Shown one piece after another: positions 26,401 through 29,400 of a stretch of 64,000 bases of DNA (positions within the stretch are counted from its first letter, which is position 1; each line of letters starts with the position of its first letter). A program made the position numbers. The stretch lies in NCBI RefSeq assembly GCF_029227855.1, contig NZ_CP074357.1, one strand, 5' to 3'. This DNA is from Escherichia coli. Its GTDB lineage: Bacteria; Pseudomonadota; Gammaproteobacteria; Enterobacterales; Enterobacteriaceae.

Positions 26401-29400
26401 GCTATCGAAGGAAAGCCGGATGCGGTTGAAACTATAGCAAATGCTTACGTGAAGCTCGGTCGCCATCGAGAAGGTGTCGTGGGCTTTGCTCAGTGCTACC
26501 TGTTCGACGCGCAGGACATCGTGACGTTCGGCGTCACCTATCTTGAGAAGCATTTCGGAACCACTCCGATCGTGCCTCCGCACGAGGCCGTCGAGCGCTC
26601 TTGCGAGCCTTCAGGTTAGAGGCCGTCGACAATGATAATCTGGATCAACGGACCTTTCGGCGCCGGAAAGACGACGCTCGCTAAGCGGCTGCGCGATCGG
26701 CGTTCCAAATCGCTGATCTTTGACCCCGAGGAAATCGGGTTCGTGGTGAAAGAAACGGTCCCCATGCCAGCGAGCGGAGACTATCAGGATCTCCCCTTGT
26801 GGAGGGGACTTACGATCGCGGCGGTCAGGGAGATTCGAAGGAATTACTCGCAGGACATCATCATCCCAATGACGCTCGTGCACCCGGACTATCTGACTGA
26901 GATACTCGACGGGGTAAGGCGGATCGACGATCAGCTGCTGCACATCTTTCTGACGCTCAACGAGGACCTATTGCGTCACCGGATCGCGAACCAGACCATG
27001 CATCCTGACCCGAATCGAAATGCGGAGATTCGAGAGTGGCGATTAGCGAATGTCGCCCGATGCTTGGCCGCAAGGGAACGGCTTCCATGCACAACCCGTG
27101 TTCTCGATAGTGGTGCACACACCAGCGATGAACTCGCAGCGATGGTGCTCGACGGAATCGATGGGCGCACCTGATCGCCTTCGACGCCTGCGCAAAGCGT
27201 AGCGCGAGGGTGGCGGGCTCACGACCAAACGCCCAGAGGTCGATCATCGCAGGGATGTTTGGCTTTGTGGTGCGGACGACGGGACTCGAACCCGTACTCT
27301 CACAGAGAAGCAGATTTTCGTACCACCTCGACTTTCGCCGCCGTCTGATGACGTTCGTGGTCTGGACTGTCCCTTCGCCATTGCCCGAAGGCTTTAGGCG
27401 CCGCCCGTCCAGTCTCTACACCTTCCCCCGAAGGGGCTTGGCTCGGGATTGGCTTAGGGTATTGCCCGTTAGCGTTCCCCGACTTTGAGCGGTTCTACTC
27501 CGCGGATTTCCCCGCGGGCACTCCAATTTTAAAGTCTGCTGCGTCTACCGATTTCGCCACGTCCGCCTTTTTTCGCCGTTCCTAGCGCTCGTGCGATGCA
27601 CCTATGTTGCACCTAGCGCCGAATCGTTCTTCGTCATCCTGAAAAACCACGTCTCCTAAAGCCTTGCATAGCTTATCTTTTCTCCACCACGAACTTTTTT
27701 GTGGGATGGTAGAAAAAAAGACTTTTTAAGTCCGCTGGCTTGCCAGGCCTTGTTAGCTTGTACGGTCATGGTTATCGGGTAAAGAATATTGACGGCATCG
27801 CTGGTGTCGGTGGCTGAAAAGCCGGCTCCCATCAGGGCAATAGCCATTTCAGATGCAGGCGTACAGGGCAATGGTCAACAGCTACAGCCTGTCTGACGAT
27901 TCCGGCGTCATGGCTGCGGCGGCTATCACGCATTTTTTGTTCGGTCAGGCGGTGTTTTCGTACCTCAATGGTTGGAGCGTGTTGATCGGACCTGGTACAG
28001 GTTTGGACAGCACGGGCTGCAAATACGCAAGGGATTTAATGGGCCTGGTGGCGTTCACGGCTTTTATCGTGACGTTTCTGTTCAGGGGCTACTCATAATC
28101 TCGTGGCTCGGCGGTTCCCGGCACACCATGACAGTAAGGAAGGACCCTGTGTCTCAACTCTCCCAGCTTCGAAGCCCCGCCGCCGTGCAGGCTGCCATCG
28201 ATGAGTTCGTGCAACTGGGCCGCACGAAATTCCTGGCGCGCCACGGCTACGGCAAGTCCCGCGACTTCCTGGTACGTGATCCGAAGACCGGCACCGATTG
28301 CGATTCCAAGGCCATCGCCGGTGTGGCCTTCGGCAAGCAATTTCCCGAGCAGGGCCCGCTCACTGCTGACAGCTTCTCCGGTGGCGAGGCGACCGTCGTT
28401 CCGGCGCTGACGCGGCTCGGGTTTCGCATCATTCGCATCGGCGAAGACTGGTCCGAAGAAGAGGTCCTGGCCACGGTCGAAGACTATTTCGACATGCTGC
28501 GTGCCGAGGCGGCTGGGGAGCCGTACAACAAGTCCGAGCACAACCAGGCACTGCGCCAACTGCTGAACGGTCGCAGCAAGTCTTCAGTCGAGCTCAAGCA
28601 CCAGAACATTAGCGCCGTACTCGATGCCCTGGGCCTGCCCTATATCAACGGCTACAAGCCACGCGGCAACAGCCAACTGCTGCTGCGTAAATCCGTACAC
28701 GCCTACGTTCTGGAACATCAGCAGACGGTCGGCGCTCTTGTCGATGCCCTGGAGGAGGTAAAACTTCCGGGTGACAAAACCTACCGAGCGGCTTTGGTAG
28801 AACCACCCGCCCGTGAAGTGCTTGTGCGTACCCCGGCATCTCTACGGCAACGCCTACCGCGAAAGTTCGATTATGCCGCTCGCGATGAAGCCAACCGCAA
28901 GCTGGGCCGGGCAGGGGAGCAGTGGGTGATTGGCTACGAACAGCAACGCCTGACCGAGCTCGGCCACCCAGAGCTTTTTCAGCGGCTGGATTGGGTGTCC
29001 GACACCCAGGGAGACGGTGCGGGGTTCGACATCCTGTCGTTCGAAGAGGACGCCCATGAGCGCTTCATCGAGGTGAAAACCACCAATGGCGGGGTAGGCT
29101 CGTCTTTCTTGGTCAGCCACAACGAACTCGAATTCTCCAAGGAGGCGGGCGATCAATTCCATCTGTATCGCGTGTTCCAGTTTCGGGACGGTCCGCGCCT
29201 GTTCACGCTACCCGGCGACCTCAGCCAACATGTGCATCTCAAGCCGACGGGCACTGTTGCAAATAGTCGGTGGTGATAAACTTATCATCCCCTTTTGCTG
29301 ATGGAGCTGCACATGAACCCATTCAAAGGCCGGCATTTTCAGCGTGACATCATTCTGTGGGCCGTACGCTGGTACTGCAAATACGGCATCAGTTACCGTG

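Follow-up and report, generated by a model that had tools for sequence, protein, structure and literature searches.

An apparently intact tRNA-Leu(UAA) gene split by a group I intron of alphaproteobacterial type within an IS26-bounded aac(3)-II/tmrB module of Escherichia coli

The stretch analysed here, 64,000 nucleotides of Escherichia coli contig NZ_CP074357.1 (assembly GCF_029227855.1; hereafter the window), carries a tRNA-Leu(UAA) gene that is split by a compact group I intron and lies inside a gentamicin resistance module that is common on clinical plasmids and is bounded here by two copies of the insertion sequence (IS) IS26. Very probably this is an intact precursor tRNA gene of a type found in Hyphomicrobiales-like Alphaproteobacteria, complete with its subgroup IC3 intron and carried on a plasmid as a passenger. 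That assessment covers the identity of the gene, its integrity, its class of origin and its passenger status, and does not extend to activity in its new hosts, which is taken up separately below. The kind of element is a known one; it is the location that is new, or at least unremarked.

Two stretches of the minus strand, 27566-27532 (reading GCGGACGTGGCGAAATCGGTAGACGCAGCAGACTT) and 27318-27268 (reading AAAATCTGCTTCTCTGTGAGAGTACGGGTTCGAGTCCCGTCGTCCGCACCA), join to form an 86-nt class II tRNA-Leu(UAA), and the 213 nt that separate them fall between anticodon positions 34 and 35. An initial annotation, made from the sequence alone, had proposed these exon strings, their coordinates and the length of the insert, all of which a direct reading of the sequence bears out. 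When the exons are spliced by hand, ARAGORN identifies the 86-mer as tRNA-Leu(taa) and shows its long variable arm and encoded CCA, which agrees with the class and identity proposed there. The product has a 7-bp acceptor stem, a TTCGAGT T-loop and the A73 discriminator, its end reading ...CGTCCGC-A-CCA, and A73 and the 3' CCA are invariant in the homologue alignment described below. Once the intron is removed, the cloverleaf expected of a tRNA-Leu, with its long variable arm and UAA anticodon, is present, and the exons are those of a tRNA-Leu(UAA) gene of alphaproteobacterial type. The exon-exon junction expected after splicing is GCAGACUU followed by AAAAUCUGC, and the corresponding k-mer, GCAGCAGACTTAAAATCTGCTTC, is absent from the DNA. 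The parts of the gene are as follows.

27532-27566, minus strand: 5' exon of tRNA-Leu(UAA), comprising the acceptor 5' strand, D arm, 5' anticodon stem and C32 U33 U34; placed by sequence reading, by the ARAGORN call on the spliced product and by alignment with 54 homologues
27268-27318, minus strand: 3' exon, comprising A35 A36, the remaining anticodon arm, long variable arm, T arm, acceptor 3' strand, A73 and CCA
27319-27531, minus strand: group I intron, IC3-type, 213 nt, without an open reading frame (ORF), organised as P1-P2-P3-P4-P5/5a-P6/6a-P7-P8/8a-P9/9a/9b
27520-27535, minus strand: P1, in which exon ACUU and intron UA pair with intron UGGAGU
27410-27416, minus strand: 5' strand of P7, G(A)GACUG with a bulged A; guanosine-binding helix, forming a pseudoknot with 27364-27369
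27364-27369, minus strand: 3' strand of P7, CAGUCC
27319, minus strand: omega-G (G248), the final nucleotide of the intron, next to the 3' splice site; the same in all 55 homologues

Helices were mapped from the seed alignment and structure line of the bacterial tRNA-intron model of Williams (2020; bioRxiv 10.1101/2020.01.27.920355). The 5' splice site lies between 27532 and 27531 and is marked by the U-1•G (U34•G) wobble of P1, which, like the terminal G before the 3' exon, had been pointed out initially and proves invariant, the wobble being present in 55 of 55 sequences while the adjoining P1 pairs covary. P2 is CCGCGGG-GAAA-UCCGCGG, P3 is CCGCUC/GGGCGG, and P4 (UCGGGG/UCCCGA) is followed by P5/P5a; the distal part of P8/P8a is GCC-UUCG-GGC, and P9 (ACCAC/GUGGU) is followed by P9a and by P9b, the latter with a GAAA loop. 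The helix list of the initial annotation needs correction at two points and is otherwise right. The hairpin CCCC-UUCG-GGGG is P6a and not P6, which is GCC/GGU. P7 had been drawn as CTGGAC/GTCCAG, in a shifted register; the supported register, G(A)GACUG/CAGUCC with its bulged A, matches the structure line of the Williams seed, and its closing pair covaries, being A-U in 47 homologues and G-C in eight, with G-C in the window copy. In the window copy each of the 88 pairs proposed is canonical (counting the tRNA arms that can form in the precursor), and the features that define a group I core are all there, namely the P3-P4-P6 and P7-P8 helices, the P3/P7 pseudoknot and the bulged A in P7.

An exact-pattern scan for the core motif, run on one genome per species, returned at least 120 matches; those listed are mostly from Alphaproteobacteria and Acidobacteriota, and about three quarters of the loci among them are tRNA-Leu(UAA) genes split at the identical site, the others being Arg, Thr, Lys and other tRNA genes. 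We aligned 54 of the loci over the full 299-nt precursor together with the window copy (55 sequences). In this alignment 93.9% of the cells pair, as against 33-44% when the partners are slid by one to three columns; both-side compensatory changes occur at 45 of the 83 pairs counted, and none of 500 shuffles matched any of the observed covariation measures. The core helices are 99-100% paired across the 55 homologues, with compensatory changes in P3 (one pair is U-A in 30 homologues and C-G in 25), P7 and P8, and such changes are also found at all seven P2 pairs, in P8, P9a and P9b, and in the T stem as well as the acceptor. Pairing, with covariation, reaches 100% in the acceptor stem, 100% in the D stem and 99.6% in the T stem, and the columns of the variable arm are poorly aligned (48% paired). 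Neither CUU at the 5' splice site nor G/AAAAU at the 3' splice site varies. Of the 178 columns with at least 95% conservation in the other 54 sequences, not one shows a deviation in the window copy, whose differences from its nearest relatives are confined to loops, apart from a compensatory C-G to U-A change in P9a (relative to the two closest loci, L119 and L020). It follows that the gene is an undamaged member of its family and not a relic.

Covariance models lead to the same assignment. The Rfam model of group I introns (RF00028, Intron_gpI) matches 27541-27349 over the whole model with 36.8 bits and an E-value of 2.9e-7 (2 kb searched). A second model, R1, which we trained on 30 independent tRNA-Leu introns of Alphaproteobacteria, with neither the window copy nor its three closest relatives among them, has its sole match in the 64-kb window at 27535-27312, full length, with 235 bits and an E-value of 1e-76. 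Together with the canonical pairs and the covariation, these matches confirm the initial proposal of a compact group I intron between positions 34 and 35. Two scores tell against it. The RF00028 match, which had been suggested as a check and did appear, stays below the gathering score of 50 by which Rfam accepts a match, and an Rfam scan of the whole window at the gathering threshold does not report the intron. The z-score of the intron's minimum free energy (MFE) is only -1.13. Both could be taken as signs of a chance resemblance or a decayed pseudogene, a reading to which we give practically no weight and which we regard as refuted by the canonical pairs, the covariation, the R1 score and the conserved columns. 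The sub-threshold RF00028 score reflects the model rather than the sequence; according to Williams (2020), who accepted matches from 18-20 bits, the seed of RF00028 is without any bacterial intron. The MFE z-score, for its part, is uninformative for a GC-rich, pseudoknotted ribozyme. Judged by its sequence, the split gene is an intact member of a known family of self-splicing type, the IC3 introns designated Leu.3Ug, for which guanosine-dependent self-splicing is predicted; the family is described as self-splicing by Williams (2020).

The proteobacterial Leu.3Ug introns (Williams seed Ncf2.Leu.3Ug) share with the window copy the tRNA, the insertion site (CUU/intron/AAAA), U-1, omega-G and the P1-P9 architecture with its GAAA and UUCG loops, and full-length alignments of the window copy with more than 50 alphaproteobacterial genes give 71-95% identity. 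The difference is one of setting, since the Leu.3Ug genes are chromosomal, whereas the window copy lies in an IS26-bounded resistance module found on enterobacterial, Acinetobacter, Aeromonas and Pseudomonas plasmids. Such introns are also less rare than initially supposed, when they were thought to be limited to cyanobacteria and a few proteobacteria: Williams (2020) located 5,292 such introns across some 80,000 genomes, and our own scan extends to Acidobacteriota. The intron of the cyanobacterial and plastid tRNA-Leu(UAA) gene (Anabaena/Nostoc; PMC4476775 for Nostoc) occupies the same site of the same gene with the same IC3 fold; its core strings, for example CCUGAGCC and GCAGAGACU in the cyanobacterial seed Sel1, differ from CCCGAGCC and GUAGAGACU in the window copy, as do its peripheral P6 and P9 elements, and the window copy clusters with the alphaproteobacterial introns and not with the cyanobacterial ones. 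The introns of the Azoarcus tRNA-Ile(CAU) and Agrobacterium tRNA-Arg(CCU) genes (seeds Aol6.Ile2.5Ug and Arg.5Ug) are likewise IC3 introns of about 200 nt in the anticodon loop, with a very similar P3-P8 core, but they reside in other tRNAs and after position 5 rather than 3 in Williams' numbering.

The cyanobacterial and plastid introns, reportedly described by Xu et al. and by Kuhsel et al. in 1990, are the classic self-splicing examples, and those of Azoarcus and Agrobacterium were reportedly described by Reinhold-Hurek and Shub in 1992. The group I ribozymes usually associated with E. coli, and active in its cells, are those of the phage T4 genes td, nrdB and sunY. The T4 introns are phage-borne, belong to subgroup IA, interrupt protein-coding genes and mostly carry homing-endonuclease ORFs, whereas the element in the window is plasmid- or chromosome-borne, interrupts a tRNA gene and lacks an ORF. 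In the phage collection only distant matches were found, at 68-76% identity. One is an unannotated stretch of Gordonia phage Daredevil (NC_048021.1, 41862-42116), 68% identical over 78% of the precursor, which is possibly a related group I intron in an actinophage.

As to where the gene came from, the closest relatives over the 299 nt, among the matches listed, are chromosomal Enterovirga aerilata (L119, 95.4%), a metagenome-assembled genome (MAG) of Bradyrhizobiaceae (L020, 95.0%), a Novosphingobium MAG (L023, 93.4%) and Rhodovulum steppense (L003, 89.4%). A donor-only pattern run on metagenomes found nothing, and a relaxed pattern found one further L020-like relative (L138, 84% identity). 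Homology with L020, L119, L023 and L138 runs from 27733 to exactly the 3' end of the tRNA at 27268, both limits being identical in L138, so that it takes in a stretch upstream of the gene.

27567-27733, minus strand: native alphaproteobacterial leader of the tRNA gene, with the conserved block CTAGGTGC-N4-ATAGG-GCA

The far end of this leader (27713-27733, minus strand) is a hairpin with a T-run, the 3' remnant of the 5' half of an upstream pseudo-tRNA-Leu. In the chromosomal relatives an orphan tRNA-Leu 5' half with an unsplit CUUAAAA loop lies 196 nt upstream of the split gene and is followed by the hairpin and T-run (L020:3523-3575, L119 on the minus strand, L138:3590-3640, and L023); the plasmid keeps only the hairpin and T-run (27733-27713). 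Comparable pseudo-tRNA pieces are seen at -196 in L075 and at -228 in L092. The alphaproteobacterial DNA of the plasmid starts within the hairpin that follows the orphan half. The orphan half itself may be what is left of a tandem paralogue in decay, or of a recombination event long ago. On these affinities the tRNA unit would have a Hyphomicrobiales-like alphaproteobacterial source, with no species to be named, which agrees with the alphaproteobacterial nearest relatives of tmrB and aac(3). The initial suggestion that the gene tags the donor of the resistance segment holds insofar as it points to an alphaproteobacterial source; it does not single out a species, and the module turns out to be chimeric, with a Pseudomonas-like right arm. 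That the unit lies within an IS26-bounded aac(3)-II/tmrB segment, 93 nt from the tmrB stop, was seen correctly from the start, as the list of the module shows.

24675-25494, unstranded: left IS26, with terminal inverted repeats
25495-25723, plus strand: IS10/ISVsa5 outer-end remnant with RNA-OUT (RF00240, 98.8 bits, 25609-25678)
25759-26619, plus strand: aac(3)-II (IId/IIe-type) aminoglycoside acetyltransferase gene (Pfam Antibiotic_NAT; labelled aac(3)-IId in RefSeq)
26632-27174, plus strand: tmrB-like AAA ATPase gene (Pfam AAA_33/AAA_18), convergent with the tRNA gene
27175-27267, unstranded: 93-nt spacer from the tmrB stop to the tRNA 3' end; Sinorhizobium-like homology stops at 27172
28149-29249, plus strand: DUF3883 gene (Pfam ScoMcrA_N and NOV_C), its 3' end clipped by IS26
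29250-30069, unstranded: right IS26, with terminal inverted repeats

The resistance genes have relatives of their own. The IS10/ISVsa5 remnant stops 35 bp upstream of the aac(3)-II ATG, and Sinorhizobium-like homology starts at the same point; the outward pOUT promoter of the IS10 end probably drives aac(3)-II and tmrB. From 25725 to 27172 the two genes are 86.3% identical, over 1,450 nt of DNA, to three contigs of 15-176 kb (L132-L134; two metagenome contigs of the Joint Genome Institute and one Logan assembly), in which an overlapping AAC(3)-tmrB pair is native (L132:7127-8564, L133:7127-8564, L134:6920-8357). The proteins of this pair are 87-88% identical to those of the plasmid (87% at the amino acid level for AAC(3)), and the nearest relatives of tmrB are alphaproteobacterial. 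The neighbourhood is syntenic with, and 86% identical to, that of Sinorhizobium meliloti, which has tmrB there, without aac(3). For two parts of the module, the 95 nt at 27173-27267 and about 400 nt at 27734-28129, there is no relative in the Sinorhizobium-like, tRNA-relative or Pseudomonas-like loci that were fetched. The idea that 27734-28148 might be the clipped 3' end of a Pseudomonas helicase gene was ruled out, there being no blastn or tblastn match.

On the right, the DUF3883 protein (module segment 28130-29249) has its nearest relatives in Pseudomonas and Stutzerimonas, at 85-90% amino acid identity, and the DUF3883 gene together with the downstream 456-aa IS matches Stutzerimonas kunmingensis over 2.8 kb at 89.7% identity. 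In Pseudomonas and Stutzerimonas (L139:2810-10604; L142:2763-9137) the gene sits after a gene for a DEAD/UvrD helicase of about 1,700 aa, a partner that the plasmid lacks, and the plasmid copy is probably the orphaned half of a pair. The helicase-DUF3883 pair is defence-island-like and in L142 adjoins Gabija-like genes. Taken together, the homologies show the module to be a chimera of a Sinorhizobium-like aac(3)-II/tmrB segment, a Hyphomicrobiales-like tRNA unit and a Pseudomonas/Stutzerimonas-like right arm. Each piece with an identified relative is only about 84-90% identical to the nearest sampled one, and the collections searched therefore contain no sample of the donor or donors. The wider window is a dense IS26 mosaic, with 15 exact IS26 terminal repeats (GGCACTGTTGCAAA) at sites from 82 to 59532, that is, about seven to eight IS26 copies or ends. 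Matches to RF02912 (AAC_AAD_leader / attI site) at 630-702 and 30960-31035 on the plus strand suggest two class 1 integron attI regions.

The boundaries of the tRNA unit also bear on an explanation in which the tRNA gene was the attachment site of a donor island that carried aac(3)-II and tmrB, as the initial annotation had implied in pointing to the 3' end of the tRNA as the side on which islands integrate. tRNA genes are common targets of genomic islands, chromosomal homology stops exactly at the tRNA 3' end, and the left boundary too falls on a tRNA landmark, the anticodon hairpin of the upstream pseudo-tRNA-Leu half. Yet there is no integrase among the Pfam domains of the module genes between the IS26 copies, and the 26-nt tRNA 3' end occurs only once in the 64-kb window, even with up to three mismatches allowed, so there is no direct repeat of the kind an attachment site would leave. 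Moreover, the Sinorhizobium-like contigs hold aac(3)-tmrB in a conserved chromosomal neighbourhood, with no tRNA after tmrB and neither a tRNA nor an integrase near the pair, and the 93-nt spacer between tmrB and the tRNA has no identified relative. We consider integration of an island at this tRNA improbable, and prefer assembly of the passenger gene into a chimeric module.

The module is widespread. A 526-bp region of it is present in 1,323 PLSDB plasmids, with at least 99% identity in 1,316, and the hosts include Escherichia, Klebsiella, Salmonella, Acinetobacter, Enterobacter, Shigella, Citrobacter, Aeromonas and Pseudomonas; the full 299-nt precursor is present in 1,292 PLSDB plasmids, among them pCTX-M3 (NC_004464). 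Among complete E. coli genomes, 655 of 5,426 (12%) carry the region, and 86 of its 692 places are chromosomal. The exact TmrB protein occurs in more than 25,000 index blocks, and all of the contexts seen for it are IS-bounded resistance regions, with no native donor among them. A metagenomic contig of chromosome size (L125, ENA ERZ27273429, 2.1 Mb) holds at 5093-7892 a 99.9% identical copy of window positions 25724-28523, split tRNA included; beta-lactamase genes flank this copy, and its DUF3883 gene is interrupted by a different IS.

No RNA feature is annotated at the gene in any record inspected, RefSeq included, and the intron goes unannotated because RF00028 gives it only 36.8 bits against a gathering score of 50. 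The sole RefSeq annotation here is a 63-aa 'hypothetical protein' (WP_000951934.1, 27656-27847, minus strand) that runs across the junction at 27733 and the non-coding leader and is probably a spurious ORF call. Default ARAGORN finds no tRNA anywhere in the unspliced 64-kb window, as had been expected of ordinary tRNA callers, and in intron mode it misplaces the splice junction and reports the gene as tRNA-Stop(tta); close relatives fare likewise, being called 'Phe', 'His' or 'Stop', an error of this mode that Williams (2020) describes. The literature searched yielded no link of a group I intron or a tRNA-Leu gene with IS26, tmrB, aac(3)-II or Klebsiella plasmids, and no named origin for aac(3)-II. 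One paper, PMC4048246, concerns group II introns only. Williams' text, which rests on about 80,000 assemblies from 2017, does not mention plasmid copies, although they may very well have been counted among its proteobacterial Leu.3Ug introns.

If the gene is transcribed, the course of events would follow that of its family. Folding of the transcript would bring exon ACUU into pairing with the internal guide GAGU, with the U•G wobble at the splice site; a free guanosine bound in P7 would attack after U34; omega-G (27319) would then take the P7 site and the 5' exon would attack the 3' splice site, and the ligated product would be the 86-nt tRNA with its encoded CCA and A73. As for how it came to the plasmids, about 466 bp of alphaproteobacterial DNA (27268-27733) were very probably built into the chimeric module beside aac(3)-II and tmrB, and IS26 then spread that module clonally. 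Nothing in the sequence argues against splicing competence, and competence is predicted.

Activity in the new hosts is another matter, and here several points count against the gene. A scan upstream of it gave no sigma-70-like promoter, the best relaxed match being 6-7 of 12, and the leader block CTAGGTGC-N4-ATAGG-GCA, kept among the relatives, is unlike the E. coli consensus. A terminator-like hairpin 150 nt upstream insulates the gene from upstream transcription, and transcription of aac(3)-II and tmrB, which probably starts on the pOUT side of IS10, would reach it in the antisense direction. The plasmid copies are, moreover, clonal, with no variation from which selection in the new hosts could be read, and their intactness consequently says nothing about selection. 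The missing promoter, the hairpin and the convergent transcription would all be expected if the gene were a silent relic in Enterobacterales, structurally intact and never transcribed or never spliced, and to this we assign nearly an even chance. Set against it are the flawless structure, in which every pair is canonical and no conserved column deviates, the fact that weak or non-consensus promoters often fire on multicopy plasmids, and the ability of IC3 tRNA introns to self-splice without host factors, related ones being known to work in E. coli. The data show what the gene is, its integrity, its family, its phylogenetic affinity, its spread and its lack of annotation; transcription, splicing and aminoacylation in enterobacteria are matters of inference only, and because the promoter evidence is weak we would put the detection of the spliced tRNA in E. 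coli somewhere between a limited chance and an even one.

One may also ask whether the gene has been kept because it is useful, either as an extra tRNA-Leu(UAA) for the decoding of UUA and UUG or as a substitute for a tRNA hit by an anticodon nuclease. Not one of the copies inspected, which come from many genera, shows any damage to the gene, and it has A73 and an E. coli-like layout of the D-loop, from which, by the identity rules of leucyl-tRNA synthetase (LeuRS), we presume that the E. coli enzyme would plausibly charge this tRNA. However, recent clonal spread explains the intactness equally well (identity is at least 99% in 1,271 of the 1,292 plasmid copies), the genes of the module hardly use the codons in question (UUA 0-1 times and UUG 2-4 times in each), upstream scans find no recognisable E. 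coli promoter, and in some variants of the module other ISs have cut it without regard for the tRNA. Retention for a benefit to the host therefore seems to us very improbable, more so than the island, and we continue to regard the gene as a passenger.

A catalytic RNA and a foreign tRNA gene that stand unannotated in some of the most heavily sequenced resistance DNA expose a blind spot of standard annotation, which arises because the gene escapes tRNA callers, its intron scores below the threshold of RF00028 and the RefSeq annotation pipeline (PGAP) calls a probably spurious ORF over the leader. For the history of the resistance genes, the tRNA unit offers a slowly evolving tag of known phylogenetic type, with concrete junctions to search, and together with the native Sinorhizobium-like aac(3)-tmrB pair it narrows the origin of aac(3)-II to the Alphaproteobacteria (Hyphomicrobiales). 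Should the gene be silent, it is a hitch-hiker of interest to annotation only; should it be expressed, it is a ready-made natural system for the study of a group I ribozyme and a heterologous tRNA in E. coli. That the native leader is transcribed in clinical Enterobacterales, that the intron self-splices and that a charged alphaproteobacterial tRNA-Leu(UAA) enters the translating pool is, taken as a whole, doubtful. If it were so, E. coli would have its first active group I ribozyme of natural, non-phage origin, carried by about one in every eight complete genomes of the species, and the decoding of UUA and UUG, or the tolerance of tRNA-targeting toxins, might shift measurably.

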